Of a stretch of DNA of 64,000 nt, positions 2,311 to 62,366 are shown one piece after another. Every line of letters begins with the position of its first letter. Positions within the stretch are counted from its first letter, which is position 1. The notes below the pieces were generated by a model. The model saw only the letters and a list, made by a program, of their open reading frames with translations. It made no database searches and was not told the DNA's origin. The stretch is from a virus (Duplodnaviria; Heunggongvirae; Uroviricota; Caudoviricetes), in IMG/VR virus record IMGVR_UViG_2925891887_000001; one strand, written 5' to 3'. The position numbers were made by a program, and so were the translations under genes.

Positions 2311-2344
2311 TTTCATTGATAGGTAAGTACTTATCTATTAACAT

Positions 2345-2377
2345 GGGCCACTATATTTAGTGGCCCTCTTTATTTGG
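2345..2377 (+). terminator. intrinsic terminator-like hairpin
   Basis: gggccactatatttagtggccc stem-loop followed by tctttattt. Confidence 0.5.
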
Positions 2378-2383
2378 TGATAC

Positions 2384-4699
2384 ATGATAAGCATCGTAAA
2401 ACGTAACGGCCAAACAGAGCCGTTATCCGAAGAAAAATACAACCGCGTCGTAATGTATGGCGTAGAAGGCATTCGTGGTGTAAGCGCATCCGCTGTAGCA
2501 ATGGGAGCTGCGGCCAGCATTTTTGATGGGATGACCACCAGCCAGTTGCATGAGGCTTTGGTTAAATCTGCCGCTGATTTGATCTCACCAGAAGCACCAA
2601 ATTACTCACAGGTGGCTGCCCGCCTGAACATTTTTAAAATCCGCAAAGATGCCTTCGGTCGTTACGACTATCCGAACTTCTACCAACACATTGTCAAGAA
2701 CGTTAACAAGGGCGTTTATGACAAGGATTTGCTGACACATTATTCGTTTGAAGAGATCGAAGAACTCGGCAATTACATTAAGCCTAAACGTGACGATCTT
2801 TTTGGCTATGCAGCTACGGTGCAGTTGCAAAGCAAATACCTCGTTCAAAACCGTGTTACTGGTGAGATTCATGAGGGGCCGCAACATATCTATATGCTGG
2901 TAGGCATGTGTCTGTTCCAGAATTGGGAAGACGACTGCGCTGGCAAAACACGTATGGAGATGGTCAAAGGTTTCTATGACGTTACAAGTACGTTCAAACT
3001 GTCTCTGCCCACACCAATCATGGCCGGCGTCCGTACTCCAACCCGTCAGTTCTCCAGTTGTGTGCTGATTGAGTCTGGCGATAGTCTGAAAGGGATTAGT
3101 GCAGCTTCAGCCGCAATTATCGACTACGTTTCACGTCGTGCTGGAATTGGTATTGGTTTTGGCCGTATCCGTGCGCTGGGCAGCGAGATCCGCAATGGTG
3201 AAGCCACCCATACCGGAGTTATTCCATTCCTGAAGCATTTCCAGACGGCTGTTAAATCTTGTTCGCAAGGTGGTGTTCGTGGTGGCGCAGCAACAGCGTT
3301 TTACCCGATCTGGCATCTTGAAGTTGAAAGTCTGCTGGTGGTGAAAAATAACCGTGGTATTGATGAAAACCGCGTTCGCCATCTTGATTACGGCGTCATG
3401 AGTAACCGTCTAATGTACCGTCGACTCGTCAGAAGCGAGAACATCACTCTGTTCAGCCCGCATGATGTGCCTGATATGTACGAAGCCTTCTTCACAGACC
3501 AGGAGCTGTTTGAAAAGCTGTACCATAAATACGAAGCCGATGATTCAATTCGCAAGAAGTCAGTACCTGCCATTGAGCTGTTCTCATCTCTGATGCAGGA
3601 ACGAGCGTCCACGGGCCGAATTTATATTGCGAACGTCGATCATATTAATGAGCATGGCGCTTTCATTCCTGCTCTTGCACCTGTCCGCCAGTCAAACCTG
3701 TGTATGGAGATCACCCTACCCACCCGTCCACTGGCATTTACCGACGACCCGAACGGTGAGATCGCGCTATGCACTTTATCCGCTTTTAACCTCGGAGCCA
3801 TCCGTTCACTGGAGTCTCTTAAAGAGGTGGCGTTCTATGCCGTTGCTGCACTGGATTCGTTACTGGATTATCAAGACTATCCGATGGAGGCAGCCGAAGT
3901 GCCTGCCAAAGCTCGTCGTAGCTTGGGAATTGGTGTAACCAACTTTGCTTATTACCTGGCAAAGAATGGCGTTCGTTATTCTGATACCGCTGGCAATAAA
4001 CTGGTGCATGAAACATTCGAAGCTATCCAGTATTACCTTCTTGATGCCAGCTGCCGACTTGCTGAAGCAAAAGGTGAGTGTGACTGGTTTGAGCAGACCA
4101 AGTACGCAATTGGTCAGTTGCCGATCGACCATTACCGTTCTTCATTAGACGAAAGTGGCGAAACCAACTTTGAGTTAAAGATGCCGTGGGAAGAACTGCG
4201 TGAACGTATTGCAAAATACGGCCTTCGCAACTCCACACTGACGGCACAAATGCCATGCGAGACTTCCAGCCAGATCACTAATTCCACCAACGGCATCGAA
4301 CCGCCTCGTGGCCCGGTGTCGGTGAAATCTTCTAAGGACGGCATCGTTAAGATGGTCGTGCCTGAGTTTGAAAAACTGAAGGAACAGTATGAATACCTGT
4401 GGGATATGCCGGACAACCGCGGCTATCTGACAAAGGTGGCGATCATCCAGAAGTTCTTTGACCAGGCTATTTCAGCCAATACCAACTATGACCCTTCTCG
4501 CTTTGAAGGCGATAAAGTCCCAATGATGACGCTACTGTCAGATTTGCTTCTCGCCTACAAGATGGGAGTTAAAACGCTTTACTACCACAACACCAGAGAT
4601 GGGGCAGGAAAGCGTGATGACGACGAACCGCAAAATCCACTGACGCAAGCTGTAGCCGTCGAGCCAGAAGATGAGTGCGACGGAGCCTGCAAAATCTGA
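2384..4699 (+). CDS. nrdA: ribonucleoside-diphosphate reductase alpha subunit (class Ia, with ATP-cone)
   Basis: 771 aa; near-colinear with E. coli NrdA as I recall it (PTPIMAGVRTPTRQFSSCVLIE, NLCMEI, C-terminal CDGACKI). Confidence 0.93.
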   Translation: MISIVKRNGQTEPLSEEKYNRVVMYGVEGIRGVSASAVAMGAAASIFDGMTTSQLHEALVKSAADLISPEAPNYSQVAARLNIFKIRKDAFGRYDYPNFYQHIVKNVNKGVYDKDLLTHYSFEEIEELGNYIKPKRDDLFGYAATVQLQSKYLVQNRVTGEIHEGPQHIYMLVGMCLFQNWEDDCAGKTRMEMVKGFYDVTSTFKLSLPTPIMAGVRTPTRQFSSCVLIESGDSLKGISAASAAIIDYVSRRAGIGIGFGRIRALGSEIRNGEATHTGVIPFLKHFQTAVKSCSQGGVRGGAATAFYPIWHLEVESLLVVKNNRGIDENRVRHLDYGVMSNRLMYRRLVRSENITLFSPHDVPDMYEAFFTDQELFEKLYHKYEADDSIRKKSVPAIELFSSLMQERASTGRIYIANVDHINEHGAFIPALAPVRQSNLCMEITLPTRPLAFTDDPNGEIALCTLSAFNLGAIRSLESLKEVAFYAVAALDSLLDYQDYPMEAAEVPAKARRSLGIGVTNFAYYLAKNGVRYSDTAGNKLVHETFEAIQYYLLDASCRLAEAKGECDWFEQTKYAIGQLPIDHYRSSLDESGETNFELKMPWEELRERIAKYGLRNSTLTAQMPCETSSQITNSTNGIEPPRGPVSVKSSKDGIVKMVVPEFEKLKEQYEYLWDMPDNRGYLTKVAIIQKFFDQAISANTNYDPSRFEGDKVPMMTLLSDLLLAYKMGVKTLYYHNTRDGAGKRDDDEPQNPLTQAVAVEPEDECDGACKI

Positions 4700-4804
4700 C
4701 ATATGGTGGGGTGTATCCCCACCTTCTCTTTGATTTGTAAGCCTTGTTTAAACAAATAAGATAACAACTTGTTTAAACACATCAAAAAGCAAAAGGAAAA
4801 ACAC

Positions 4805-5947: not shown

Positions 5948-6024
5948 ACCGATACAAAGCATTATGTGGCCTGGCAACGCTGGGCCACAATGGATCACAA
6001 GAATTAAGAAGGAACAAAACTAGC

Positions 6025-6894: not shown

Positions 6895-7065
6895 TTGTAG
6901 GTAGTTATCTATCTGTGTATATTGCATTTGCGCGTTAAATTTCTGAAACAACTATTCGTTTTTGGTGGCCTATGGCCACCATTTTTTTATCTATCTGGTC
7001 TTGTTCTCTCAATAAATGTAAACTCACACAATGAATAAGTGGTTACTTATCTTTGTGAGGTTTTT

Positions 7066-8169: not shown

Positions 8170-8170
8170 T

Positions 8171-9701: not shown

Positions 9702-9762
9702 AAATTGTTCGCCTCTTCGACATTGCGACAATAAAACTCTCAAAATGGGTTAAGGATAAAAA

Positions 9763-10182: not shown

Positions 10183-10191
10183 GGAGTTCTG

Positions 10192-11717: not shown

Positions 11718-11900
11718 CGTTCCCCTACTTAAAATAAAGCCCATAGAGAGCTTTATAGTACTGGGTAAGCCAATCACATACCCAGCACCACAAAAACGCG
11801 CCAGAGAGCTTCTCGTTTGCATTTCTGGCGTGTTTTATTTGATTGCCAGACATAAAATCAAATGCAAAAATAGGTATATACTTACCTATCGAGAAAGAAG

Positions 11901-12494: not shown

Positions 12495-12500
12495 TTTGTT

Positions 12501-12910: not shown

Positions 12911-13492
12911 TAGATAAGTACAAACTATTCATAAAGTGAATTGTAAGTGCTAAGATCTGATAGTTTCCAGTCGTAGACTGGAGACTCGACCTGATGGGTG
13001 GGGGTAAGCGTCACTGGCGTCAGGTTTAAAAAAGCTCACTACCAGCGTAGAACTGGTGCCGTTTAGGTGTCGGGGAAGGGGGAACCAAAGTGAGCAGAGA
13101 CAAGGGTCACTTTATGATTGTCGAGTCTGGGGTGTTTCGAGAGGTTGAATCCAGTACTCCCCTTCATAAAGTGTGGGAAGATCTCGGTTCTGGGGTGCTG
13201 TCATCCATAACTTCCCAAGTCTAAGCTGGCAGTAGACTTAGACCATAACTTTTCAGGTTATGAAACGACCAGGTTGGTGAGAGATTTTTATACTCACCTC
13301 CCTGGGAGAGTATTACCTGAAAAGACAACCTCTCACTTCGTTCGAGGTGAACTTCACTCACTTCGTTCGTTCAGTTCAGGTTTATAAAAACCTGTTCTGG
13401 GAAGTAATTTGTTTATTTTAATAATTATTAACACGCACGCGTGTGCGCACGCGCGAAGAAAAATCGGCGCGGCGCTTGATTCAGGAGTTTAT

Positions 13493-14083: not shown

Positions 14084-14231
14084 TAAGTAAGTGTTTACCT
14101 ATCATTTTAAATCATGTATCTTATCGGCGTCAGGATGACAATGTGTCGGTAAGACACAGTTCCAGGATGGAACGAGAAAGGCGGCTGGCAATCGCCAGCC
14201 GCAACTCTTTCTGACACTGGATGGAGTCCAC

Positions 14232-19279: not shown

Positions 19280-19441
19280 ACGCTACAAATCCTTCGGCAT
19301 GAATAAATAAAGGCCATAAGTTGTGGCCTTAAATAAATTGTTTTCTACCTTTTCTTATTTGTGAAAATAACCACAACTAGAAAACAACGGAGTTAAGAAT
19401 GTCTAGTATTTCCGAAGCTCATATGTTCGCCGCTGGCGCTC

Positions 19442-19568
19442 GGTGATGCTGCCAACTTACTGATTTAGTGTATGATGGTGTTTTTGAGGTGCTCCAGTGG
19501 CTTCTGTTTCTATCAGCTGTCCCTCCTGTTCAGCTACTGACGGGGTGGTGCGTAACGGCAAAAGCACC
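19442..19568 (+). mobile_element. IS1 fragment (left terminal inverted repeat through insA codon 24 only)
   Basis: Identical to IS1 positions 1-127 and to the reverse complement of the complete IS1 at 54445-55212; identity stops abruptly inside insA. Confidence 0.9.
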
Positions 19569-20678: not shown

Positions 20679-20835
20679 CCCGTCTCCTTTATTTTAATTT
20701 GCGCAATTGTCGCCTTGTAGTGTACTCCAGCTACGACATTTAATCATTTATGAGAAATGCTGTTATCACATGGCAGACATAAGGCCATTTTGTTACTATC
20801 AAGCCCCTTTTCACTACAAAGAAGTAATGCCTACT

Positions 20836-22869
20836 ATGACCCAAGTCGCGAAGAAAATTCTGGTGACGTGCGCGCTGCCGTACGCTAACGGCTCAATCCA
20901 CCTCGGCCATATGCTGGAGCACATCCAGGCTGATGTCTGGGTTCGTTACCAGCGAATGCGCGGCCACGAGGTTAATTTCATCTGTGCCGACGATGCCCAC
21001 GGTACGCCGATCATGCTGAAAGCACAGCAGCTTGGTATCACACCGGAGCAGATGATTGGCGAAATGAGTCAGGAACACCAGACTGATTTCGCAGGCTTTA
21101 ACATCAGCTATGACAACTATCACTCGACGCACAGCGAAGAGAACCGTCAGTTGTCTGAGCTTATCTATACTCGCCTGAAAGAGAACGGTTTTATTAAAAA
21201 CCGTACTATCTCTCAGTTGTACGACCCGGAAAAAGGCATGTTCCTGCCGGATCGTTTTGTGAAAGGCACCTGCCCGAAATGTAAATCCCCGGATCAATAC
21301 GGCGATAACTGCGAAGTCTGCGGCGCGACCTACAGCCCGACTGAATTGATCGAGCCGAAATCGGTGGTTTCTGGTGCTACCCCGGTAATGCGTGATTCTG
21401 AACACTTCTTCTTTGATCTGCCCTCTTTCAGCGAAATGTTGCAGGCATGGACCCGCAGCGGTGCGTTGCAGGAGCAGGTGGCAAATAAAATGCAGGAGTG
21501 GTTTGAATCCGGCCTGCAACAGTGGGATATCTCCCGCGACGCGCCATACTTTGGTTTTGAAATTCCGAACGCGCCGGGCAAATATTTCTACGTCTGGCTG
21601 GACGCACCGATTGGCTACATGGGTTCTTTCAAGAATCTGTGCGACAAGCGCGGCGACAGCGTAAGCTTCGATGAATACTGGAAGAAAGACTCCACCGCCG
21701 AGCTGTACCACTTCATCGGTAAAGATATCGTTTACTTCCACAGCCTGTTCTGGCCTGCCATGCTGGAAGGCAGCAACTTCCGCAAGCCGACCAACCTGTT
21801 TGTTCATGGCTATGTGACGGTGAACGGCGCGAAGATGTCCAAGTCTCGCGGCACCTTTATTAAAGCCAGCACCTGGCTGAATCATTTTGACGCTGACAGC
21901 CTGCGTTACTACTACACTGCGAAACTCTCTTCGCGCATTGATGATATCGATCTCAACCTGGAGGATTTCGTTCAGCGCGTGAATGCCGATATCGTGAACA
22001 AAGTGGTTAACCTGGCGTCCCGTAACGCTGGCTTTATCAATAAGCGTTTTGACGGTGTGCTGGCAAGCGAGCTGGCTGACCCGCAGTTGTACAAAACCTT
22101 CACTGATGCCGCTGAAGTGATTGGTGAAGCGTGGGAAAGCCGCGAATTTGGTAAAGCTATCCGTGAAATCATGGCACTGGCTGACCTGGCTAACCGCTAT
22201 GTCGACGAGCAGGCTCCTTGGGTAGTCGCAAAACAGGAAGGTCGCGATGCTGACCTGCAGGCGATTTGCTCAATGGGCATCAACCTGTTCCGCGTGCTGA
22301 TGACTTACCTGAAACCGGTACTGCCGAAACTGACAGAACGTGCGGAAGCATTCCTGAATACGGAACTGACCTGGGATGGCATCCAGCAACCGCTGCTGGG
22401 CCATAAAGTGAATCCGTTCAAAGCACTGTATAACCGTATCGACATGAAACAGGTGGAAGCATTGGTGGAAGCGTCTAAAGAAGAAGTGAAAGCTACTGCC
22501 GCGCCAGTTACTGGCCCGCTGGCAGACGACCCGATTCAGGAAACCATCACCTTTGACGACTTTGCCAAAGTTGACCTGCGCGTGGCACTGATCGAAAACG
22601 CAGAGTTTGTTGAAGGTTCTGACAAACTGCTGCGCCTGACGCTGGATCTCGGCGGTGAAAAACGCAATGTCTTCTCAGGCATCCGTTCTGCTTATCCAGA
22701 CCCACAGGCACTGATTGGTCGTCACACCATTATGGTGGCTAACCTGGCTCCGCGTAAGATGCGCTTCGGCATCTCCGAAGGTATGGTGATGGCTGCTGGC
22801 CCCGGCGGGAAAGATATCTTCCTGTTAAGCCCGGATGCTGGTGCTAAACCTGGCCACCAGGTTAAGTAA
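20836..22869 (+). CDS. metG: methionyl-tRNA synthetase (E. coli chromosomal gene)
   Basis: 677 aa from [26 protein letters not shown]; HIGH-type motif, KMSKS, zinc knuckle CPKC...CEVCG; essentially identical to E. coli MetG. Confidence 0.95.
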
Positions 22870-22952: not shown

Positions 22953-22967
22953 AAAACAATTTGTTTT
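22953..22967. promoter_or_regulatory. motif A palindrome AAAACAATTTGTTTT (second copy at 23002-23017)
   Basis: First phage-type element to the right of the host segment. Confidence 0.5.
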
Positions 22968-23030
22968 CTACCTTTTGTTGATTGAGATAATAAGCCACAT
23001 AAGAAAACAAATTGTTTCGGAGTGGTTGAA

Positions 23031-27486: not shown

Positions 27487-27490
27487 TATT

Positions 27491-27506
27491 GTAAGTACAT
27501 ACTTAC
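27491..27506. promoter_or_regulatory. motif B palindrome GTAAGTACATACTTAC
   Basis: Perfect inverted repeat between terminator and gene 27550. Confidence 0.5.
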
Positions 27507-31326: not shown

Positions 31327-31851
31327 TTAAAATGGAAGGATTCGTTCAACCCAATCGAAGAAAACAAGTATTTTTCTGCCGTCTTCTAACTTAAGAGTGA
31401 CCTGGCAAGCATCAACGCCTCTTGACACCCCTTCTATTTCACGACCGTCTGTCATGTAGACCCTTATAGATTGGTCGTTTTGATAAGCCTTGCGACATAT
31501 CGCAAAAAAGTCACGGCGTGATGGCTGATTGTCAACATAGTCTGGATGTATTGTTAGCCTACCTTTGAACTCGCGAGCAATGTCATCGATTACACCTGAT
31601 TCAATTGTGCTAATGCGCTCAAGTGGGAGTCTTATACGATTTTCTTTATCATATGGAATCGGGCATAAATCTAGCTTATTGCGTGAAGGCATTGTCCCCT
31701 GAACGTACATGCAAAACACCTGACCGTCTTCAAGCGTGACTCTTACAGGAATGTTGTTCTTCCGCCAGAACATAAGTATGTTCTCAGCATGTTCGTAGTC
31801 TCGCGGCCAGACTTCAGCCGGTATGCCGTAGGTGATGTCCAATGTTCTCAT
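31327..31851 (-). CDS. hypothetical protein (174 aa), AT-rich cassette
   Basis: 4-nt overlap with upstream gene (translational coupling). Confidence 0.45.
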   Translation of the reverse strand: MRTLDITYGIPAEVWPRDYEHAENILMFWRKNNIPVRVTLEDGQVFCMYVQGTMPSRNKLDLCPIPYDKENRIRLPLERISTIESGVIDDIAREFKGRLTIHPDYVDNQPSRRDFFAICRKAYQNDQSIRVYMTDGREIEGVSRGVDACQVTLKLEDGRKILVFFDWVERILPF

Positions 31852-35569: not shown

Positions 35570-35633
35570 AAACCTCTTTCCTTAGTGCCTTTTGTATGTT
35601 ATTTGGCTATTATAATAAGTAAGTGATTACTTA

Positions 35634-36332
35634 ATGGATTGTAGCAATAAAATGGATGTAAAAATCACGATTTTGCAGGTTGATGTTGCCAACCTTCGCC
35701 CGAATACCTGGAACACCAATTCGGTTGGTGCGCAGAATTTCGAAAAACTGAAAGGTTCTATCGAAAAATTGGGCTTTTTTAAGCCAATTTTGGCTCGTGA
35801 ACTTGAAGATGGATTTTTTGAAATCCTCGGCGGCGAACATCGCTGGCGTGCCGCTATTGAGCAAGGAATTTCAACGGTTCCGGTGCTTTCTGTGGGCAAA
35901 ATTAGCGATGTCGTAGCTAAACAGATGTCACTGGTGGACAACGAGCGATACGGTGAAGACGACCAAATCGCATTGCAACGCTTCATTGAAGAAATTCAGT
36001 CAGAGCTTGACTATCAACTGTCTGAAATCGCCCCGTATGACGACGAAATCTCGATGGTTTTAGCAAAAGAGGCGGCAATCGACCTTGAAGCACTGGAGGC
36101 GTTGTCTCGTGGTAGTGATGAGCCTGTCGATACCGACAAACGAGAGAAAACCGAACGTGTGGGTGCGGAACATCAGACCATGCGCTTCAAAGTAACTTTC
36201 GATGCGTCAGATCGTGTTGCAGAAACCATAAAAAACATCATTAAAGAGCAGGCTATTAACACCGGTAATGAAATGGAGAACGCTGGTGAGGCTCTGGTGT
36301 GGCTGGTCGACTACTACAAGGAGCGTATGTAA
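35634..36332 (+). CDS. ParB/Srx-like nuclease-domain protein
   Basis: N-terminal ParB-type domain with box II-like GGEHRWRAA; acidic C-terminal half. Confidence 0.55.
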   Translation: MDCSNKMDVKITILQVDVANLRPNTWNTNSVGAQNFEKLKGSIEKLGFFKPILARELEDGFFEILGGEHRWRAAIEQGISTVPVLSVGKISDVVAKQMSLVDNERYGEDDQIALQRFIEEIQSELDYQLSEIAPYDDEISMVLAKEAAIDLEALEALSRGSDEPVDTDKREKTERVGAEHQTMRFKVTFDASDRVAETIKNIIKEQAINTGNEMENAGEALVWLVDYYKERM

Positions 36333-37000
36333 TGACCAAAAAGTTTGAAATCGTATATCGCGACCCGGCAGATCTTATTCCCTATGAGATGAATGCCAAA
36401 AAGCATGATGAACAGCAGATCCGAGATCTGGCCGCAGCCATTAAAAAGCGCGGATTTGACCAGCCAATTACGGTCGATAAGAACGACGTAATTATTACTG
36501 GCCACGGCCGCCGTGAGGCTGCAATTTTTGCTGGACTTGAGCGCGTACCGGTTATTGTTCGCGATGATCTCAGTGATGACGAGGTTCGTGCGAAGCGCCT
36601 TGAAGATAACCGACTTGCCAGCATTGATTACGATGCAATTAAGCTACAGAAAGAGCTTGAGTCGCTTGTTCTGGACGATATCGAGGTTTTCGGCTTTGAA
36701 GAGCGTGAGTTGAATGTTCTCGTTGGCAGTATGACAGAAGAAATGGACACCGACTCGCTAGTTATCGATCTTGGCGAAGAAACTAAACGACAGAAGGATG
36801 AACACACCGTGATCAGTCGTGAAGTTGCAGCGGAAGAAGTACGTGTTGTCGACGTATTGGGCTTTAAAACGCTCCCTGCTGGCTCTGCCATTGTTGTTGG
36901 TGATTTGCTTGCCCACATGGAAGAAATGACGGGAGAAAGCGGGGTAGACGCATTTGTGGCATATGCGGAGAAGATCTCTTCCGGGGAGATGGCTGCATGA
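36332..37000 (+). CDS. ParB/Srx-like domain protein (second copy)
   Basis: ITGHGRREAA motif; start overlaps upstream stop. Confidence 0.5.
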   Translation: MTKKFEIVYRDPADLIPYEMNAKKHDEQQIRDLAAAIKKRGFDQPITVDKNDVIITGHGRREAAIFAGLERVPVIVRDDLSDDEVRAKRLEDNRLASIDYDAIKLQKELESLVLDDIEVFGFEERELNVLVGSMTEEMDTDSLVIDLGEETKRQKDEHTVISREVAAEEVRVVDVLGFKTLPAGSAIVVGDLLAHMEEMTGESGVDAFVAYAEKISSGEMAA

Positions 37001-37635
37001 GCAAATACATCATCAACGTATCGTTTCAGACACGCGTAAATAAAACCACGCGCACGTTGGAAATCGCTGAGTCGTTCGGGCTTGGCCTGGACGAAAAAGA
37101 GTGGACGCTTTACGACAATCTGGAGCTGGAAGTGAAGCAGGGCGATGTGGTGTACATTACCGGCCAATCCGGTTCCGGCAAATCCGTTGTGCTGCGCGAG
37201 CTGCAACACCAGATGAAGGATGAAGGGCTATCTGTGGCCTCCATCGATGATTTTACCTTCGATAATGAGGTTAACGTCATTGACCAACTGGGCAAAACTA
37301 CCAGTGATGCGCTTGGGTTGTTATCTATGGCTGGTCTGAACGATGCATATCTGTTTGTTCGCAAGCCTTCTGAAATGTCAGACGGTCAGAAATATCGTCT
37401 CAAGATTGCCAAACTGATTGAGTCAGGCGCTAAAGTGTGGGCTGCTGACGAGTTCGGCGCTGTTCTCGACCGTGTAACCGCTCAGGTTGTGGCATCTAAC
37501 CTCCAGCGTGCCGCTCGAAAGGTTGGTGCGACGGTAATGGTGGCGACGACTCACGAAGACCTGAAGAACGCGCTGCGCCCGGATATGCAGATCACCAAGC
37601 ACTACAAAGAACGCGTGAAGGTGGAATATGCCTGA
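36997..37635 (+). CDS. ABC-type ATPase (single nucleotide-binding domain)
   Basis: Walker A GQSGSGKS, signature-like SDGQKYRL, Walker B/D-loop VWAADEFGAVLD, H-loop TTHED. Confidence 0.6.
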   Translation: MSKYIINVSFQTRVNKTTRTLEIAESFGLGLDEKEWTLYDNLELEVKQGDVVYITGQSGSGKSVVLRELQHQMKDEGLSVASIDDFTFDNEVNVIDQLGKTTSDALGLLSMAGLNDAYLFVRKPSEMSDGQKYRLKIAKLIESGAKVWAADEFGAVLDRVTAQVVASNLQRAARKVGATVMVATTHEDLKNALRPDMQITKHYKERVKVEYA

Positions 37636-37882
37636 TTTGAAGATCGTAGAGCTGAAGCCATCGAAAGAGACTGATAACAACAACGTGGAAGTCATCCGCC
37701 TGCTGGAAGAAGCACTTCAGCACGCCAGAGAAGGAAAAAGCCAGAGCCTGGCGCTGTTGATGATCAACAACGACGGCAGTGTTCTTGATTGCTGGCATAA
37801 CGGCGGGCGCCCGTATGTCATGGTAGGGGCGATGGAGTCTCTTCGCCTGGATTTCATCAATGCCAATATCGAGCGCAGGTGA
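37628..37882 (+). CDS. hypothetical protein (84 aa)
   Basis: Overlapping start/stop with neighbours. Confidence 0.4.
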   Translation: MPDLKIVELKPSKETDNNNVEVIRLLEEALQHAREGKSQSLALLMINNDGSVLDCWHNGGRPYVMVGAMESLRLDFINANIERR

Positions 37883-37887
37883 TCGAG

Positions 37888-38778
37888 ATGGCAGATATCA
37901 TCATCAAACGCTACCGCCCTGAAGAGTTTCCGCGTCATCTGGACTTTCTGGAGCGAATGACTGTCACAAAGGGAACTGTAGAGGACTGGCACGCTCTTAA
38001 GTCGCTTCACTACAAAACAGACGGCAAACCTTTCGCGCCAACTTACTATCGCTGCGAACTTGATGACCGTCTGGTGGGCGTCGTGGTTATGGCTTACCCG
38101 AAACTACTGCTGGCACCTCGCCACCGCATGTTTCCTAAGTTGAAACCAACCACTAATACCACCGTGGCTAACCAGTACTGGGGTCGGTACGTGAATAACA
38201 ACTTTGCGGTGATCAGTCGCTCAGTTGTGGATACTCAGTATCGTGGCGTAGGCGTCTCTTATCGAATGATTAACCTGGTTAGCAGGATGCATGACCGGCC
38301 AATCATTGAGATCCAGTCCTCGATGAGCAAATACAATCCCTTCGCCATGAAAGCAGGGTTTAAGTTCATCCGCCCTGAGCGACCGAAGAGCTATGAAAGT
38401 GCACTGCGTGTATTCCAGCGCCATTTCCGTTCCGACCCGGGTGATAACGAGGCGATCGTCAAAGAGTTGTTCGCAATGAGCGAGTCTCGTCGTCGCCGTG
38501 CACTGCGTGATCTGGTGGCGGACTACCACAAGAACAGTTCCCTGGCAAAAGCTGGGCGGAATCGTGGCACGACGATTCAGGACATTGCCGACAGTCTGGT
38601 GGACGAGGCCAGCATTGTGAAGCTGCTCAAGGACATTCACAACCTGAGCTTTACGTCTCCGTTGTATGGTGTGTACCGAAACCCTGACTTTGGCCGTCGA
38701 CTGCCTGACACGCTGCCACTGCTGGCATTCGACAAACAACCTTTGGATAAACCGTTAGAAATTGCTTTACCGGCATAA
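37888..38778 (+). CDS. hypothetical protein with GNAT-like acetyltransferase motif
   Basis: Motif A-like QYRGVGVS after a beta-strand segment; weak. Confidence 0.35.
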   Translation: MADIIIKRYRPEEFPRHLDFLERMTVTKGTVEDWHALKSLHYKTDGKPFAPTYYRCELDDRLVGVVVMAYPKLLLAPRHRMFPKLKPTTNTTVANQYWGRYVNNNFAVISRSVVDTQYRGVGVSYRMINLVSRMHDRPIIEIQSSMSKYNPFAMKAGFKFIRPERPKSYESALRVFQRHFRSDPGDNEAIVKELFAMSESRRRRALRDLVADYHKNSSLAKAGRNRGTTIQDIADSLVDEASIVKLLKDIHNLSFTSPLYGVYRNPDFGRRLPDTLPLLAFDKQPLDKPLEIALPA

Positions 38779-38787: not shown

Positions 38788-39054
38788 ATGACGTTAACCG
38801 ATAAACAAAAGGACATCATCAAAACGCTCAATCTCGGTTATGAGCGAGGTCATCTACTTGACCTGGACGAATTGCTTGAAGTTTTGCCGTACAAGACAAC
38901 CAAGCAAAGTATCCAGTTCTCAATTCGCGCTCTGATAAAAAAGGGGCTGGTGGAGAAAGGGCATACGCGCCAACGCAGTGACAATCGCTATCACCGCCGA
39001 ACTCTTGGGTTAACTACTTTAGGTCGAGCCAAAGCGAAGTTACTGGTGATGTAA
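38788..39054 (+). CDS. small putative winged-helix DNA-binding protein (88 aa)
   Basis: Basic helical protein; pattern only. Confidence 0.35.
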   Translation: MTLTDKQKDIIKTLNLGYERGHLLDLDELLEVLPYKTTKQSIQFSIRALIKKGLVEKGHTRQRSDNRYHRRTLGLTTLGRAKAKLLVM

Positions 39055-39056
39055 TC

Positions 39057-39154
39057 GGTCTGGGAGCTTATTTAAAGACCTGCTTCTGTATATATAAATA
39101 ATAAGTAACTTATTAAATATATACGGAAGCAGGCTTCGTAAGACATGCCAGACC
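39057..39154. repeat. nested inverted-repeat element R2, 95 bp upstream of terS
   Basis: gacctgcttctgtatatat ... atatatacggaagcaggc inside ggtctggg ... ccagacc. Confidence 0.6.
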
Positions 39155-39249
39155 TAATTAAACACCCCAGAAAACAAGTTGGTTAGCAGATGCAGTAAAC
39201 AAGTTGTTTTAGAGCGCATGGACGCGCTCTGTGTGTTTTAGAGGGATCT

Positions 39250-39882: not shown

Positions 39883-41138
39883 TGGCAATCCCGTCCTCGC
39901 TCAGTCTTGTGCAACTGCATTCTGGACAGATGAAAGTCTTCCAGTCTCCGCATCGATTTAAAGTTGTTTGTGCTGGTCGACGCTGGGGAAAATCCCGGTT
40001 GTCGATCTCCACTATTATTCGTGCGGCGGCAAAGGAAAAAAAGCAAAGGGTCTGGTATGTCGCTCCTACTTACCAGATGGCTCGCCAGATTTTGTGGGAC
40101 GATCTACAGGAAGTTCTGCCTCGTAAGTGGGTTAGGAAAAAGAACGACACCACGATGACAATCGTGTTGAAGAACGGTTCGGAGATCGCCCTCAAAGGTG
40201 CTGATAAGCCTGACACTCTGCGCGGCGTAGCGTTGCATTTTGTAGTGCTTGATGAATTTCAGGATATGAAGGCTGACACCTGGTACAAGGTGTTACGACC
40301 TACTCTTTCATCGACACGCGGCGGTGCACTGATCATTGGTACGCCAAAAGGCTTCTCGGAATTTCACAAACTGTGGACTATAGGCCAGAACGTAGAGCTG
40401 CAAAGAAAGGGACAGTGGAAGAGCTGGCAGTTTGTAACTGCCGATTCTCCGTTTGTGCCTACGGCGGAAATTGAAGCTGCTAAGAACGATATGGACCCCA
40501 AATCGTTCGCTCAGGAGTACCTGGCCAGCTTTGAGAACATGTCCGGGCGCGTTTACTACCCGTTCGATCGTAACGTGCATGTAAAACCGCTTCAGTTCAA
40601 CCCTCGGTTGCCTATATGGGTAGGGCAGGACTTCAACATTGACCCGATGTCTTCAGTAATTTTGCAACCTCAGCCAAATGGTGAGCTATGGGCAATTGAT
40701 GAATTGGTGCTCTTTTCCTCTAACACGGCAGAAGTTTGTGATGAGCTTGAGAGACGCTTCTGGCGCTGGAAATCACAGGTAACGGTATTTCCAGATCCGG
40801 CAGGTGCTTATCGCCAACATGCTCGTGGGGAGTCTGACGTAGACATATTCAAAGAGAAGGGATTCTTACGTGTCGATTATTCGAAAAAGCACCCGCCAAT
40901 TGCGGATCGTGTTAATGCTGTTAACCGAATGCTGATGTCCGCATCTGGAGATATCCGGCTGTATATCGATCCGAAGTGCAAGCATTTGATTGATTCACTG
41001 GAAAAAGTCATCTACAAGCCTGGAACACGAGATATGGATAAGACAGGTGGCATTGAGCATAGTGCAGACGCATTGGGCTATCCAGTACATCGTAGGTATC
41101 CAGTCAAAAACCGTGTTATTCTTGGTGGTTCTCGATAG
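39882..41138 (+). CDS. terminase large subunit
   Basis: Walker A CAGRRWGKS, Walker B VVLDEF, C-terminal nuclease-type acidic residues (VGQDFN). Confidence 0.85.
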   Translation: MAIPSSLSLVQLHSGQMKVFQSPHRFKVVCAGRRWGKSRLSISTIIRAAAKEKKQRVWYVAPTYQMARQILWDDLQEVLPRKWVRKKNDTTMTIVLKNGSEIALKGADKPDTLRGVALHFVVLDEFQDMKADTWYKVLRPTLSSTRGGALIIGTPKGFSEFHKLWTIGQNVELQRKGQWKSWQFVTADSPFVPTAEIEAAKNDMDPKSFAQEYLASFENMSGRVYYPFDRNVHVKPLQFNPRLPIWVGQDFNIDPMSSVILQPQPNGELWAIDELVLFSSNTAEVCDELERRFWRWKSQVTVFPDPAGAYRQHARGESDVDIFKEKGFLRVDYSKKHPPIADRVNAVNRMLMSASGDIRLYIDPKCKHLIDSLEKVIYKPGTRDMDKTGGIEHSADALGYPVHRRYPVKNRVILGGSR

Positions 41139-41153
41139 GTAAGTAATTATCTA
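41134..41153. promoter_or_regulatory. motif B palindrome GATAGGTAAGTAATTATCTA
   Basis: Overlaps terL stop codon, 11 nt upstream of portal ATG. Confidence 0.5.
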
Positions 41154-41164: not shown

Positions 41165-42739
41165 ATGGAATTGAACGACAAACAAATTAAGGATCTGGTG
41201 GCGCGACGCCACCCGGAATACGAAAAGAAAAAAGAACATTGGGACTTCCTCGCCAGCACTTACGCTGGCGGGCGTGGTTGGTTTACAGACAATATCTTTC
41301 GTTACTTTAAAGAGGGAGATCAGGAGTTTAAGGAGCGAGTTGAACGTGCTTATCGCTTCAACCACACTCGTGAGGTGGTAAACCTCATCAACAAATATCT
41401 CTTTAAAGAAGACATTCATAGAAATATCGAAGAGGCACCAGAGCAGATCCGCAATTTCTGGAAACGTGCGACTCGCCAGAATGCCTCTATTGACTCATTT
41501 ATGGCCGCTATTGATTTGCAGTCGTCTATTTACGGTCGCATATGGGTTGTTGTCGATAGCACGATGAGTGGTGATGTTGAGTCAGTAGCTGACGAGAAAA
41601 AGAAAGATGCTCGCGCCTACGCCTACTGGATTTCACCTCAGCAAATGCTGGATGTGGCATGGGACGACGACGGGAATATGTTGTGGGCGTTAATTGTGGA
41701 AGTCGCTCGTGATGACGCAGATCCTTTTACTTCTACAGGTCAGGAATACCAACGTTATCGTCTGTGGACACAAAACGAGTGGTATCTGTTCCGTGAGGAA
41801 GTGAAGAAGGGCGCTGGTGGAGCAGGTCGCCGTCAGGCAAAAGTTATTTTAGAGGATAGCGGTGAGCATAATCTCGGCGTAGTTCCTGTGTTTCCTGTTG
41901 ATTGTATTGGAGAAAGTGAATCACCGTATTTCAGCCCATCGTTGATCGATGATATCGCTTATCTTGATCGTGCGGTTGCAAACTATCTGTCAAACCTTGA
42001 TGCCATTATTCAGGATCAGACATTTAGCCAGTTGGCTATACCGGTACAGTCGCTTTTACCTGGTGATGAAAACCACACTAAAGTGCTTGAAATGGGCACA
42101 AAGCGAGTCTTCACCTACGATTCTGAAGGTGGAAACCAGCCGTTTTATCTGTCACCAGACCCGAAACAAGCTCAGATGATCATCACTACGATTAAGACGG
42201 TGATTAACGAAATCTACCATTCAGTTGGTGTAGCTGGTGAGCGAACGAAGCAGGACAACGCACAGGGAATCGATAATTCATCTGGTGCCGCAAAAATGTA
42301 TGACTTCCAGCGTGTAAATAGCTTGCTTGTCACAAAAGCAGAGCGTCTGGAAAGGGCTGAACGCCAAATCATGCTACTGGTTGCGAAATGGATGGGGGCA
42401 GATCTGGACGAAGACCACTCTTTAATTGCGTATCCAGAAAGTTTCGATATTCGTGGCCTTACTGATGAATTTTCTGTTGCCGAGAAACTGTCATTACTTC
42501 AGGCACCGGACTCTGTACGTCGTCACCAGATGGAAATGCTTATTGAGAAGATTTTCCCGAACATTACTGAGGCGATGAAAAAGGAATTTGATAAAGATCT
42601 CTTGAATTTTCCTCCAAAAAATGATCTAAATACCCTTGAAAATAAGTCAGTACTTACTTATGATCGTGGTGCAGCCCAAGAAAGCGGGCAAGATCAACCC
42701 CGAGGGAATGGGGACTCATCTACTCAAGAGAACGAGTGA
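41165..42739 (+). CDS. portal protein
   Basis: 524-aa ORF directly after terL; size and position. Confidence 0.7.
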   Translation: MELNDKQIKDLVARRHPEYEKKKEHWDFLASTYAGGRGWFTDNIFRYFKEGDQEFKERVERAYRFNHTREVVNLINKYLFKEDIHRNIEEAPEQIRNFWKRATRQNASIDSFMAAIDLQSSIYGRIWVVVDSTMSGDVESVADEKKKDARAYAYWISPQQMLDVAWDDDGNMLWALIVEVARDDADPFTSTGQEYQRYRLWTQNEWYLFREEVKKGAGGAGRRQAKVILEDSGEHNLGVVPVFPVDCIGESESPYFSPSLIDDIAYLDRAVANYLSNLDAIIQDQTFSQLAIPVQSLLPGDENHTKVLEMGTKRVFTYDSEGGNQPFYLSPDPKQAQMIITTIKTVINEIYHSVGVAGERTKQDNAQGIDNSSGAAKMYDFQRVNSLLVTKAERLERAERQIMLLVAKWMGADLDEDHSLIAYPESFDIRGLTDEFSVAEKLSLLQAPDSVRRHQMEMLIEKIFPNITEAMKKEFDKDLLNFPPKNDLNTLENKSVLTYDRGAAQESGQDQPRGNGDSSTQENE

Positions 42740-44558: not shown

Positions 44559-44576
44559 TAGATAAGTAATTATCTA
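44559..44576. promoter_or_regulatory. motif B palindrome TAGATAAGTAATTATCTA
   Basis: Perfect inverted repeat 10 nt after capsid stop. Confidence 0.5.
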
Positions 44577-44583: not shown

Positions 44584-44610
44584 GGGTGGGCTATACGCCC
44601 ACCCTTTTTG
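44584..44610 (+). terminator. intrinsic terminator
   Basis: gggtgggctatacgcccaccc followed by TTTTTG. Confidence 0.65.
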
Positions 44611-48128: not shown

Positions 48129-48135
48129 CTCAATT

Positions 48136-48153
48136 GGTAAGTATATACTTACT
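48136..48153. promoter_or_regulatory. motif B palindrome GGTAAGTATATACTTACT
   Basis: 7 nt after upstream stop, 50 nt before major tail ATG. Confidence 0.5.
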
Positions 48154-54261: not shown

Positions 54262-54459
54262 CTATCGACTGCCCCGACCGGGGCAGTCTCACAAGGATGT
54301 GAGATGGAAAGACAAACGTTTAATTGGTATCCAGATTACGAATCTGAAAAGAGCGTAAAACCGAATGTAACGGTACTTAATTTTGGTGATGACTACGAGC
54401 AGCGACAGGCTCAAGGTCTTAATCGTATTAAAGAAGAATGGTCGGGTAATGACTCCAAC

Positions 54460-54963
54460 TTATTGATAGTGTTTTATGTTCAGATAATGCCCGATGACTT
54501 TGTCATGCAGCTCCACCGATTTTGAGAACGACAGCGACTTCCGTCCCAGCCGTGCCAGGTGCTGCCTCAGATTCAGGTTATGCCGCTCAATTCGCTGCGT
54601 ATATCGCTTGCTGATTACGTGCAGCTTTCCCTTCAGGCGGGATTCATACAGCGGCCAGCCATCCGTCATCCATATCACCACGTCAAAGGGTGACAGCAGG
54701 CTCATAAGACGCCCCAGCGTCGCCATAGTGCGTTCACCGAATACGTGCGCAACAACCGTCTTCCGGAGCCTGTCATACGCGTAAAACAGCCAGCGCTGGC
54801 GCGATTTAGCCCCGACATAGCCCCACTGTTCGTCCATTTCCGCGCAGACGATGACGTCACTGCCCGGCTGTATGCGCGAGGTTACCGACTGCGGCCTGAG
54901 TTTTTTAAGTGACGTAAAATCGTGTTGAGGCCAACGCCCATAATGCGGGCAGTTGCCCGGCAT
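54460..54963 (-). CDS. insB: IS1 InsB reading frame (transposase made as InsAB' by frameshift)
   Basis: ORF in -1 frame overlapping insA 3' end; matches IS1 insB. Confidence 0.85.
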
Positions 54964-55157
54964 CCAACGCCATTCATGGCCATATCAATGATTTTCTGGT
55001 GCGTACCGGGTTGAGAAGCGGTGTAAGTGAACTGCAGTTGCCATGTTTTACGGCAGTGAGAGCAGAGATAGCGCTGATGTCCGGCGGTGCTTTTGCCGTT
55101 ACGCACCACCCCGTCAGTAGCTGAACAGGAGGGACAGCTGATAGAAACAGAAGCCAC
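54882..55157 (-). CDS. insA: IS1 InsA
   Basis: [43 protein letters not shown]... matches IS1 InsA. Confidence 0.9.
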
Positions 55158-55498
55158 TGGAGCACCTCAAAAACACCATCATACACTAAATCAGTAAGTT
55201 GGCAGCATCACCGAATGGTCGTTAACCTTTACCAGATCATACAACGAAATTAATGCAATCGATGACTTCCTGACTGAGCGAGCAGGCGTTGAGTCGTTCT
55301 ATTGGGTTAATCCAAGAGGAAAACGGATTGTAGTTGTATGTGACAGTCATACGGTCAAGCGATATCAGGGGTACTGTGTCTTAACTGCTACATTCAGACA
55401 AGTATTTGAGGCTTAAGTATCTGGATAAGTAAGTACTAATTTACTATCATTGTGGCGCTGACAGGATGTTAGCGCCTACTTATTTCAAGGATGAAACA

Positions 55499-57568: not shown

Positions 57569-57585
57569 ACAAGGATTTTTTGAAC

Positions 57586-60500: not shown

Positions 60501-62313
60501 GGCTGCAAGAGATGAAGCGGCGGCTCTTATTGCTAAGGAAAGCGAGGCTCGTGTTGAAGGCGATGCTGCAAACGCTAAACAACTGGAAGTGTTGCAGTCA
60601 ACGGTAGAGGAAAGCTCCGCTGCCGTTGAAGAAATGAAAAAGACGGTTGCAGAGGTCGATCGTGCCAGTGCAGAACTGACTACGAACATTGAAGCGTTAG
60701 CTAAAACAAATATTGACCTGGCTCTTCGTCAAGATGAAGACCAGCACAAGCAGATGGTCAATAACGCGAAGATCGCAACAACACAGAAAACCTTTGCTGA
60801 TGATATGTCCGCAATGGCCACGAAGGTTGAGGAAATTCGCGTAGAAATTGGCGAAGACATTAAGGCCAGTATTCTGGAAGAGTCCACCGCTCGTGCCGAT
60901 GGCGATGAAGCGTTGGCAAAGCGTGTCACTCAGCTGCAATCTAAGTTTGAAGGAGATATCAGCGCGGCGATTAGTACAGAGCAGGAGGCTCGTACATCTG
61001 CCGATGAAGCTCTGACGACACAAATCACTCAGCTTGAGTCGAAAGTAAGCAACGATATCGTCGCAGCTATTAAGGAAGAGCAAGAAGCCCGAGCAACGGA
61101 AGATTCGGCTCTGGCAAGCCAGATCACCCAACTTCAGGCAAAAGTTGATGATGATATTTCTGCTGCAATACGCAGTGAGCAGGAGGCCCGAGCAAGCGGG
61201 GACTCTGCGTTAGCCAAACAAATAAACCAGCTTCAGTCAAAGGTTGACGGTGATATATCCGCTGCCATCACTCAGGAGCAGGAGGCCAGAGCAAGTGCTG
61301 ACCAGGCGCTCTCACGAGAAATTAACAGCCTGCGAGCACAAACCGGAACTGATATTGCCGCAGCGGTTGCTGTAGAGACAAAAGCAAGGACTGATGCCGA
61401 TAGTGCATTGTCTACCCAGATTACGTCTCTTACAGCAAAAGCTAATGATCTCAAGGCGTCTCTTGCCAGAGAAACAACGGCTCGTGCAGATGGTGATACC
61501 GCTTTAACAAAAGAGGTTTCAAGTTTAAAAGCACAGACAGCGAAAGATATTAGTGCGGCCGTTGCAGTTGAAACGCAGGCTCGAACTGATGCTGACTCGG
61601 CGTTGTCGTCTCAGATCACCAAGCTGACCTCTCAATACAAAGAGGATATTAAAGCGGCTGTAGCAACCGAAACGAAAACGCGTACAGAGCAAGATGCTGC
61701 ATTGGCGACTCAAATCACAAACTTAGAGTCTCAAACGGCAGCCAACATTTCCGCGGCGGTCACAACTGAAACGAAAGCGAGAACGCAGGCAGATAATGCT
61801 CTGAGTGGGCGAATCGATACTCTGAAAGCAGAGGTGAATGGAAATACCGCGACAATTCAACAGCAGGCAACAGCTATTGCTGATACCAACAAAAAAGTGT
61901 CAACCGCGTGGACGTTGAAAATGGAGACTTCAACGAGCGGAGGGCAGAAGTATGTTGCCGGTATTGCGCTTGGTATTGACACCACTGGGCTATCTCAGTT
62001 TTTGGTTCAGGCGGACAGGTTTGGTTTGGTCAACTCTGTTAACGGGAAGATCACAACGCCATTTGTTATCGAAAACAGTATCGCCTATATGAATGGAGCG
62101 TATATCAAGGATGGCACAATCACCAATGCAAAAGTAGGCGATCTGCAATCTACCAATTTTGTTAGCGGTAGATCTGGATGGCGGTTCGGCAAAAATGGAA
62201 CGCTTGAGATCAACGGTAATAGCGGCGGCAATGGGCGATTGGTTATAAATGGTCAGCGGATTGACGTTTATGACGATAACAACGTCCTACGAGTAAGAAT
62301 TGGCCGTCTGTGA
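57586..62313 (+). CDS. central tail fibre / host specificity protein gpJ-like
   Basis: About 1575 aa; colinear with lambda J over the N-terminal about 700 aa (NYPNSVLVGLKVNSEQFGS, GVWDGTFK, DAFGCTSRGQAHRVGLWLL); long internal repeat region. Confidence 0.85.
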   Translation: MEQFKKKKLPLFIAGAGGKKSSKSSSRTPVEADDTVNSRAMAAILDLLGEGVIGGLVNGARSIFIDDLPIVNEDGSSNFSGITWDFRDGSQDQTPMSGFDFVETPKSVNIQLKKTHYVTVSIDNDEADRVRVIMKFPSLRSIDKKTGDTNGTTVEYKFQIANGDSTFVDVVAEGEKSVGIKLTAKKTGVYYRSYELKLPKPGRAYKVRVVRITDDNSSQYLYNDTWVDSIGEIVDTPMNYPNSVLVGLKVNSEQFGSTMPSRSYLVRGLKIRVPSNYNESSNTYAGVWDGTFKLLSSSNPAWILFDLLTNARYGLGQYVSESMIDLGQLYQIGRYCDEEVDDGFGGKEKRFAINTQITSRQDAYRLIQDIAGAFRGMVFWAGGMVNIMQDSPSDPVMMFTNSNVKDGLFTYKGSARKDRPSVALVTYNNKEDGYKQNIEYVEDQDAMRRYGERKTEVVAFGCTSRGQAHRVGLWLLYTARMESDVITFTAGLDASFLMPGETVLIQNKYRAGKRNSGRIVAFTKNSVTLDAPVSLAKGGCFIRILNQEGKIVERDVLETGENITKVTFSKALSSAETPVLNGVWTITEPDLEPMRVRIVNIAQGETPGSFDITAVENNPSKYEAIDNGATLIPQNTTVLDPTYSKPSNLQITEGTYLSSPGNLSVKLTATWEGKSPEYWISWRRSDENNVSNWQSARVTEEQYEIVNVAENGRYDFQLYAVSFNGKKTEIISTVYQVLGTMTPPDAPTSLTAVGDYRNVILNWVNPDSVDLDHINVYASQTNNLDTAKLIAESASTTFTHAGLGDSETWYYWVRASNKRGMLSPPNSNLGTEATTRDVLSFLTGKITSSELGQALLEDINSKASQEAVDELNEHINQSVESLEGAVNDVKEDIAELDKQFSDNLADFEIKFNERSDALENAQTELKGEVSATIDKVNEAFEKIDATDAAIVEIENTVSEHDKALANTVEAIKAARDEAAALIAKESEARVEGDAANAKQLEVLQSTVEESSAAVEEMKKTVAEVDRASAELTTNIEALAKTNIDLALRQDEDQHKQMVNNAKIATTQKTFADDMSAMATKVEEIRVEIGEDIKASILEESTARADGDEALAKRVTQLQSKFEGDISAAISTEQEARTSADEALTTQITQLESKVSNDIVAAIKEEQEARATEDSALASQITQLQAKVDDDISAAIRSEQEARASGDSALAKQINQLQSKVDGDISAAITQEQEARASADQALSREINSLRAQTGTDIAAAVAVETKARTDADSALSTQITSLTAKANDLKASLARETTARADGDTALTKEVSSLKAQTAKDISAAVAVETQARTDADSALSSQITKLTSQYKEDIKAAVATETKTRTEQDAALATQITNLESQTAANISAAVTTETKARTQADNALSGRIDTLKAEVNGNTATIQQQATAIADTNKKVSTAWTLKMETSTSGGQKYVAGIALGIDTTGLSQFLVQADRFGLVNSVNGKITTPFVIENSIAYMNGAYIKDGTITNAKVGDLQSTNFVSGRSGWRFGKNGTLEINGNSGGNGRLVINGQRIDVYDDNNVLRVRIGRL
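60880..61840 (+). repeat. about 10 tandem about 99-bp (33-aa) repeats within J-like gene
   Basis: Units of form E(Q/T)(E/K)AR(A/T)xADxALxxQITxLxxKVxxDISAAIxx. Confidence 0.65.
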
Positions 62314-62343
62314 TGGTGGAAAAAAAATTTTATATCGGTAAAA

Positions 62344-62366
62344 ATAGGTAGGTATATACTTAATGG
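62344..62366. promoter_or_regulatory. motif B element ATAGGTAGGTATATACTTAATGG
   Basis: Between J stop and side-fibre start. Confidence 0.4.

Follow-up and report, generated by a model that had tools for sequence, protein, structure and literature searches.

We analysed a stretch of 64,000 nucleotides of viral DNA (IMG/VR record IMGVR_UViG_2925891887_000001, hereafter the window), which belongs to an SSU5-like E. coli phage-plasmid with 98-99% identity to Escherichia phage CMS-2020a and Cyrano (pLF82), and found that a palindrome dispersed over it closely matches the DNA site of SlmA, the TetR-family nucleoid-occlusion factor of E. coli, which prevents division of the cell across its DNA and is encoded by E. 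coli K-12. The repeat unit is an 18-bp 8-2-8 palindrome, TA(A/G)GTAAG-YR-CTTAC(T/C)TA, which extends to 18-20 bp with symmetric A/T-rich flanks. On balance, we think that this motif is an SlmA-type TetR-family operator and that each copy is a candidate SlmA-binding site (SBS) in the E. coli host, which would gate phage promoters, enable the element to exploit nucleoid occlusion, or both.

When bacterial genomes were scanned with the 18-mer as an exact pattern, the matches listed included loci from many phyla, and in 87 of 120 loci among them a TetR-family gene or a linked efflux gene starts within 200 nt of TAAGTAAGYRCTTACTTA. The listed TetR-linked loci belong to Acidobacteria, Bacillota, Bacteroidota, Planctomycetota, Deltaproteobacteria, Bifidobacterium and others; in Acidobacteria, the 18-mer stands just downstream of a TTGACA-type promoter and ahead of a TetR-family gene. 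This location beside TetR-family genes pointed to the E. coli protein SlmA, which shares 35-43% identity with the acidobacterial regulators over the helix-turn-helix domain, including the GVSEAxxxRHFxSK recognition region. The DNA specificity of SlmA seems to be common to a widespread TetR subgroup.

The published SBS core is GTGAGTACTCAC, with the rule GTRAGY.RCTYAC, which requires G, T, A and G at positions 1, 2, 4 and 5 but accepts any purine at position 3 (dissociation constant ~60 vs 50 nM) and any pyrimidine at position 6 (PMC3020112). Positions 4-15 of the motif, GTAAGT.ACTTAC, satisfy this rule, and GTAAG-YR-CTTAC in the Rhizobium relatives described below fits it too. An extended SBS consensus is AAGTAAGTGAGCGCTCACTTACGT (PMC4423959). 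Compared with the extended consensus (GTAAGTGAGCGCTCACTTAC), the phage 18-mer differs only at the two tolerant positions, and the relatives of high G+C content (high-GC) retain its outer G/C. A pattern taken from the literature only, TAAGTRAGYRCTYACTTA, found 7 sites in the window at up to 3 mismatches, vs 0.13 expected. The window sites have 1-5 mismatches to the 18 positions of the SBS consensus (1-3 in the core), compared with 3-4 (2 in the core) for the validated sites SBS17 and SBS12.

Copies of the palindrome in the window

The window contains 12-13 strong and 3 weak copies, where fewer than one is expected by chance. A search with TARGTAAGTNNTTACYTA at up to 3 mismatches gave 27 strand hits at ~13 loci (0.87 expected), and position weight matrix scans detected 13-16 loci in the window, and ~25 when applied to the complete genome of Cyrano, as compared to less than one in Markov nulls. 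The genome of CMS-2020a/Cyrano-type phage-plasmids is ~108 kb, and the whole genome carries 21-25 copies, approximately one per 4.5 kb; the most over-represented k-mers of Cyrano, and likewise of SSU5, are those of the motif.

An initial annotation of this DNA had described a family of palindromes at gene junctions, with 14 copies listed. The family is real and its frequency exceeds expectation, and all 14 positions contain motif-like sequence: most are strong copies, those at 6896 and 39099 are weak variants, and that at 27491 is a moderate one with 4 mismatches. The core as it had been written, GGTAAGTA-n-TACTTACC, has no exact match in the window, and the list lacked one strong copy, which lies at 42643-42660 in the 3'-terminal part of the portal gene. 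The revised set is as follows (strand is "." throughout):

2320..2337: SBS-like palindrome TAGGTAAGTACTTATCTA in the RuvC/nrdA gap, with one core mismatch; a sigma70-like TTGATA-17-TAACAT lies at this copy (2316-2344) and a terminator-like hairpin 3' of it (2345-2366)
6896..6913: weak short-arm variant TAGGTA-GT-TATCTA, which abuts the stop codon of a MazG-like gene
7032..7049: SBS-like palindrome TGAATAAGTGGTTACTTA, with thyX 16 nt downstream
11871..11888: SBS-like palindrome TAGGTATATACTTACCTA, with a dam-like methyltransferase gene 12 nt downstream; the last base of a promoter-like TTGCCA-17-AAAAAT is at 11871
12911..12928: half-site-only copy TAGATAAGTACAAACTAT
14084..14101: SBS-like palindrome TAAGTAAGTGTTTACCTA, which abuts the RNase H stop codon
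18135..18152: SBS-like palindrome TAGGTAAATACTTACTTA, which abuts the stop codon of the DUF4942 methyltransferase
27488..27505: moderate copy ATTGTAAGTACATACTTA (4 mismatches), with one core mismatch; TTGTAA-17-TAGAAT overlaps it, and a terminator-like hairpin lies 5' of it
35616..35633: SBS-like palindrome TAAGTAAGTGATTACTTA, one mismatch in 18, in the gap that separates uvsW (-) from the divergent first ParB-like gene (+); the last base of a TATAAT is the first of the motif, and the Rhizobium relatives have a copy at the same position
39099..39116: one-base-centre variant AAGT-A-ACTT, upstream of terS
41136..41153: SBS-like palindrome TAGGTAAGTAATTATCTA, which overlaps the TerL stop, with the portal gene 11 nt downstream
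42643..42660: SBS-like palindrome TAAGTCAGTACTTACTTA in the 3'-terminal part of the portal gene, where it is the 17-bp spacer in TTGAAA-17-TATGAT (42636-42664), the best sigma70-like promoter of the region
44559..44576: SBS-like palindrome TAGATAAGTAATTATCTA, 9 nt 3' of the capsid stop; an intrinsic terminator follows at 44584-44600 (stem from 44584, then TTTTT)
48134..48151: SBS-like palindrome TTGGTAAGTATATACTTA, 5' of the tail-tube/Ig gene; TTGAAT-18-TATACT overlaps it
55426..55443: SBS-like palindrome TAAGTAAGTACTAATTTA between the tail genes M and L, with a hairpin downstream (55454-55476)
62345..62362: SBS-like palindrome TAGGTAGGTATATACTTA in the gap from tail gene J to the tail-fibre gene; a GC-rich hairpin that lacks a U-tract comes after it

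The variant at 39099 lies in the loop of a long inverted repeat (39081-39133; CTGCTTCTGTATAT...ATATACGGAAGCAG) between the gene of an 88-aa protein and terS, which may be a packaging or regulatory structure.

Twelve of the 13 strong copies lie outside coding sequence, whereas the intergenic fraction of the window is 12% (binomial p = 1e-10). The placement at upstream stop codons that had been described was borne out: the motif contains the stop codon of TerL, directly adjoins those of RNase H and the DUF4942 methyltransferase, and lies 9 nt downstream of that of the capsid gene. So was the presence of copies in both early-type and late-type regions. The distance of 10-50 nt to the next gene applies to most copies (11-51 nt), with some at 100-152 nt. 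It had also been stated correctly that the copies are not classical intrinsic terminators, as their stems are A/T-rich and the motifs lack a U-tract or T-run; terminator-like hairpins do stand beside several of them (2345-2366, 44584-44600 and 55454-55476 after the motif, and one before that at 27488).

Conservation, symmetry and association with promoters

The expected conservation in related phages was found in SSU5 (~78% DNA identity), which has the motif at orthologous junctions with diverged flanks. Pattern scans of IMG/VR detected the motif in many contigs of 85-120 kb, some of them with 55-63% G+C. These high-GC elements are distant SSU5-like relatives (TerL 53-65% and capsid ~40% identical); TerL homologues identified among them Rhizobium phages B1VFA, V1VFA-S and RHph_X66 as well as plasmids of Rhizobium, Shinella and Ancylobacter. 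The proteins of the Rhizobium phage-plasmids are 35-65% identical to those of the E. coli element, and the motif is almost invariant in the high-GC relatives (TAAGTAAGYRCTTACTTA), with one copy per ~4.1 kb. The E. coli and Rhizobium-type elements share copies in the divergent gap between uvsW and the ParB-like gene, after ParB2, before terS, at the TerL/portal junction, and before and after the capsid gene; the TerL/portal copy (41136..41153 in the window) is conserved in all relatives. Since the same junctions and a near-invariant motif are found despite diverged proteins, the site is older and better conserved than the surrounding proteins.

This conservation bears on the idea of a selfish or recombinogenic repeat, i.e., a sequence like repetitive extragenic palindromes (REP) or miniature inverted-repeat transposable elements (MITE), or a module-boundary sequence that promotes gene shuffling. 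Dispersed, intergenic copies often beside hairpins would suit it, and the promoter-stem-loop cassettes of T4-type phages likewise stand beside hairpins. However, orthologous junctions are kept between the E. coli and Rhizobium elements, the motif is better conserved than the flanking genes, 18-20 bp is too short for a mobile element, and an associated transposase was not found. We give this explanation the slightest chance of all those considered.

The conservation of the motif is mirror-symmetric out to +/-13 bp. In the high-GC set, the central dinucleotide is TG at 46, CA at 44, CG at 23 and TA at 17 sites, that is, a YR step with mirror images equally frequent. At the variable pair 3-16, A.C mismatches (52) vs G.U (38) indicate no covariation, the predicted motif hairpins are weak (-1 to -7 kcal/mol), and no Rfam family matches the motif. 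All this suggests that the motif is recognised as duplex DNA by a symmetric protein, and speaks against an RNA structure. A hairpin in polycistronic transcripts, acting as a processing site, stabiliser or translational operator, is therefore highly improbable: the sites are indeed intercistronic and close to start codons, and each copy can fold as a 6-10 bp A/U-rich hairpin, but the changes at pair 3-16 are not compensatory, and conservation at the level of the sequence, with TG and CA equal at the centre, is that of duplex DNA. The phage also encodes a homologue of FljA, a protein that binds mRNA; in the high-GC relatives, however, no FljA-like gene was detected. For the same reason, the FljA-like protein was rejected as a partner of the motif.

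Of the three roles suggested in the initial annotation, the intercistronic RNA processing site is thus not supported. The binding site for a dimeric phage regulator came closest, inasmuch as the motif is a symmetric double-stranded DNA site, but the best-matching protein is the host SlmA and not a phage protein. The phage-specific promoter was not supported either: the element is symmetric and no homologue of a phage RNA polymerase or activator was found, yet about one-third of the sites overlap ordinary sigma70-like promoters that follow the direction of the gene.

To count these promoters, sites were oriented by gene direction, and promoter-like arrangements scoring at least 9 of 12 were accepted. 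Sigma70-like promoters overlapped 95 of 242 low-GC sites in the forward direction vs 23 in the reverse, and 44 of 162 high-GC sites vs 4; after clustering of related sites, the numbers were 48 vs 12 (low-GC) and 36 vs 4 (high-GC). The registers of motif and promoter vary, the motif being the 17-bp spacer at some sites and spanning -7..+11 at others. At the TerL/portal junction of the Rhizobium type, it is the spacer of TTGCAA-17-TACAAT, and the capsid-gene promoter of this type (TTGTCA/TTGCGC-17/18-TATTG|T) is bracketed by two motif copies 52 bp apart. Since several registers occur together with complete promoters, a repressor-type operator fits better than an activator box of fixed geometry. 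In three 20-kb segments (1-60 kb) of the window, sigma70-like matches are fewer than in shuffled sequence (17 vs 29.7, 23 vs 31.5 and 11 vs 22), and several of the few matches on the + strand coincide with the motif.

The hexamer TAnnnT (motif positions 17-22) occurs as often on one side of the palindrome as on the other (127 vs 132 sites), and only the -35 is directional. It is therefore part of the symmetric site and no directional -10; a self-contained -10 at these positions was rejected because the hexamer is mirrored opposite and is lost in high-GC relatives.

These data also bear on a resemblance to the phage-plasmid P1, which like the SSU5 family has many dispersed transcription units with one common operator or box. 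In the annotation of P1, the "-22 boxes" of the late promoters have the sequence AAGT(T/G)ACTT, with TAnnnT after a gap of 4 nt; their half-sites are those of the SSU5-family motif centre, but one more base stands in the middle (9-bp geometry), and they need Lpa, for which the box was described as the binding site (PMC10695390). If the motif were such an activator box, the palindrome would replace the -35 and be bound by an Lpa-like activator. The motif centre AAGT.ACTT, the TAnnnT beginning 3 nt later in about half of the sites, and a small winged-helix gene ahead of terS, as lpa is ahead of pacA, agree with it. Nevertheless, we consider it very unlikely, and a P1-type late promoter was rejected, as the centre is one base pair off (8 bp vs 9), the -10-like hexamer is symmetric, there are several registers, some with the motif downstream of the -10, and an Lpa homologue was not found (tblastn; PF25716 matches Lpa only). 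Moreover, some promoters have a good -35 and -10 with a 17-bp spacer and need no activator, and some start codons are just 2-13 nt past the motif. The 88-aa winged-helix protein encoded ahead of terS has no similarity to Lpa and was rejected as its homologue.

The other dispersed operator of P1, that of C1, is annotated as 17-bp sites; the C1 operators are asymmetric and unrelated in sequence to the motif.

Host SlmA or a phage protein as the partner

Searches by tblastn and with a TetR_N/SlmA profile detected no TetR protein in the window, in Cyrano and SSU5, or in 232 related loci. The regulator would therefore act in trans, and a cis-autoregulatory TetR operator was rejected, as no TetR_N domain is encoded in the phage genomes.

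Several points weigh against SlmA as the partner. None of the window sites matches the 12-bp SBS rule perfectly, and the right half-sites are often degraded in the E. coli element. A recognisable promoter is present at only 30-40% of sites, and some sites are upstream of a terminator. Two of the three motif frames contain stop codons, and the intergenic placement could partly reflect them. The motif is equally conserved in the Rhizobium phage-plasmids, and to our knowledge SlmA has not been described in Alphaproteobacteria; a partner common to the whole family would then be either a TetR protein of the hosts that has yet to be characterised or a protein conserved among the phages. A Rhizobium host TetR of the same specificity class is plausible, because such specificity is spread across phyla. 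Preliminary RNA-seq of a Vibrio slmA mutant revealed no regulon beyond chb (PMC5519180), and the paper on the lysogen transcriptome does not address SlmA (PMC9928086). The assignment to SlmA is, throughout, one made from sequence.

If the partner were a phage protein, the motif would be the operator of a conserved dimeric regulator, a global repressor or elongation roadblock acting like the stoperators of mycobacteriophage L5, and its likeness to the SBS would be convergent or incidental. A partner travelling with the phage would be the simplest explanation for a motif that keeps its sequence and its places in both the E. coli and the Rhizobium elements, the sites occur in early- and late-type regions as stoperators do, and in all relatives examined the ParB-like operon has a copy at its promoter. 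The leading candidate for such a regulator would be the 88-aa protein encoded just 5' of terS (38788-39054, +; phrog_900), and the second the ParB-like proteins. For the 88-aa protein a MarR-like winged helix is confidently predicted (pLDDT 82), and its model has MarR-type neighbours (TM-score ~0.75 to MepR/AF1382); the gene is conserved at the same position in the high-GC (Rhizobium) relatives. However, its recognition helix is not conserved in distant relatives (21-26% identity) despite the identical motif, and it is not among the lysogen-expressed genes (PMC9928086).

The ParB-like proteins are encoded beside the terminase genes (35634-38778, +) by a block of two ParB_N-domain paralogues and two ABC-type ATPases, which is kept from E. 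coli to the Rhizobium relatives with the ATPases up to 59% identical. A motif copy lies at their promoter, but no canonical ParB-type helix-turn-helix is recognisable in the sequence of ParB1, which was rejected as the partner for this reason, and no specificity link to the motif was found. In addition, chance is a very unlikely source of an SBS match that extends over 18-20 bp, and a second palindrome looks like the operator of the phage's own repressor. Taken together, we regard a phage regulator as unlikely.

This second palindrome, AGAAAACAA-N-TTGTTTTCT with the core AACAA-N-TTGTT, is confined to 14978-39208, where the SlmA-type motif is rare. TTGTTTTCT occurs 16 times vs 1.3 expected, and the palindrome is enriched in SSU5 too. 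Pairs ~50 bp apart bracket promoter-like sequence, e.g., at 19338-19387, 22955-23016 and 39169-39208. It is probably the phage's own repressor-operator system, and the SlmA-type motif would thus remain available to a host factor.

Further partners were dismissed. CYRAN_45, a "putative repressor", is within an insertion absent from SSU5; the distribution of a lysogen-expressed, 92-aa protein resembling ribbon-helix-helix (RHH) proteins is too narrow; and none of the sites of the host factors IHF, Fis, Fur, LexA, CRP/FNR, TrpR and the LacI family fits, although the inner 12 bp are partly LacI-like.

Possible function and comparison with known systems

The SBS is a known class of site; its density, its placement and its presence on a mobile element are new. 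The phage sites resemble the chromosomal SBS of E. coli in the palindrome itself, the core rule and the 18-20 bp extension, a length that fits a dimer of dimers. They differ in density, as there are 24-52 SBS per 4.6 Mb of chromosome vs approximately one site per 4.5 kb of the phage-plasmid, in having A rather than G at position 3, and in standing on a mobile element. Chromosomal SBS are located inside genes in 22 of 24 cases and between genes in 2 of 24 (PMC5519180), whereas 12 of 13 strong phage sites are non-coding and often overlap promoters. Intergenic, promoter-linked phage sites as opposed to mostly intragenic chromosomal ones point to a transcription-related role. Regulation by SlmA has precedents: SlmA bound to a high-affinity SBS represses a reporter promoter, and it regulates the chb operon in Vibrio (PMC5519180). 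Furthermore, when a multicopy plasmid carries SBS, SlmA becomes delocalised and Z rings are blocked at SlmA levels 10-fold lower (PMC4117426).

A cell contains 300-400 molecules of SlmA, which binds at 4:1 (dimer of dimers) to the 24-52 chromosomal SBS (PMC4423959), and the copy number of the plasmid is 5.5 per cell (PMC9928086). From these values, the demand for SlmA is 84-100 monomers per genome copy and 460-550 at 5.5 copies, vs the 300-400 per cell. Since this demand goes beyond the cell supply, replication after induction should titrate SlmA off the promoters. Given the match to the SBS and a density ~40-fold that on the chromosome, the element probably recruits or soaks up host SlmA.

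The following sequence of events can be proposed. In the plasmid-prophage state, host SlmA would occupy the motif copies and, bound like TetR at a promoter or junction, damp or block transcription of lytic genes; its occupancy might also make each plasmid copy competent for nucleoid occlusion. Replication after induction would titrate SlmA off the promoters, which would be a copy-number-sensing release, and as a second effect activated SBS-SlmA complexes could spread through the cell and inhibit Z-ring formation. It is possible, although we hold it to be doubtful, that phage-plasmids from Enterobacteria to Rhizobia in this way capture a host nucleoid-occlusion TetR protein via DNA sites alone, with ~25 lytic promoters silenced, the plasmid made invisible to the septum, and amplification serving as a replication-coupled timer and division block.

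SlmA sites are otherwise known only as sparse chromosomal landmarks of nucleoid occlusion. If the proposal is true, the element would have ~40-fold the chromosomal SBS density and a demand for SlmA beyond the cell content, and it would be the first phage or plasmid to exploit nucleoid occlusion with DNA sites as its sole means, without its own protein. It may then explain the silence, stable inheritance and lytic timing of the large plasmid-prophages common in clinical E. coli, Salmonella and Klebsiella. A full-text literature search found no paper linking SlmA or the motif sequence to SSU5-type phage-plasmids.

The autoregulatory operators of the TetR subgroup in Acidobacteria and other phyla have the identical 18-mer TAAGTAAGYRCTTACTTA at or near the promoter. 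They are single and stand beside their own regulator gene or efflux operon, whereas the phage has ~25 sites and no TetR gene. The use of the same 18-mer as a TetR operator in many phyla suggests that SlmA specificity is an ancient and widely shared code. In Alphaproteobacteria, isolated perfect 18-mers were seen near glyA and gatC.

The stoperators of mycobacteriophage L5 and cluster A phages, which are temperate as well, resemble the phage sites in that dozens of copies of one protein-binding site occupy narrow gaps among early and late genes and frequently touch a start or stop codon. Reportedly (Brown et al. 1997), they are 13-bp asymmetric sites in a single orientation that are bound by the phage's own repressor. 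In contrast, the motif is symmetric and matches the site of a host protein, and its mirror symmetry led us to reject an L5-type stoperator. The KorB operators on RK2 and the SopB centromere sites on N15 are dispersed palindromes that tie partition-type proteins to global transcription control, and they are bound by ParB-family proteins encoded by the element. The phage sites are likewise palindromes dispersed over a phage-plasmid, but no evidence ties the phage ParB-like proteins to the motif.

Nearly all genes of the window are on the + strand. Genes of DNA metabolism occupy 1-19 kb, accessory and lysogeny-type genes 19-35 kb, and packaging, head and tail genes the part from 35 kb onwards. 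An IS1 at ~54444-55212, with 99.6% identity to the IS1 of P1/SfIV, interrupts the minor tail gene M; therefore, this copy is probably a defective phage. An end fragment of IS1 is present at 19438-19568. Among the accessory genes, that at 20707-22869 (+) is for a methionyl-tRNA synthetase of full length, in which the catalytic, anticodon-binding and tRNA-binding domains are all present. The FljA-like protein mentioned above (31327-31851, -; 174 aa) is a full-length match to the FljA family of phase-1 flagellin repressors (PF03614, E = 3e-80) and is conserved in SSU5, and with it the element may silence host flagellin.

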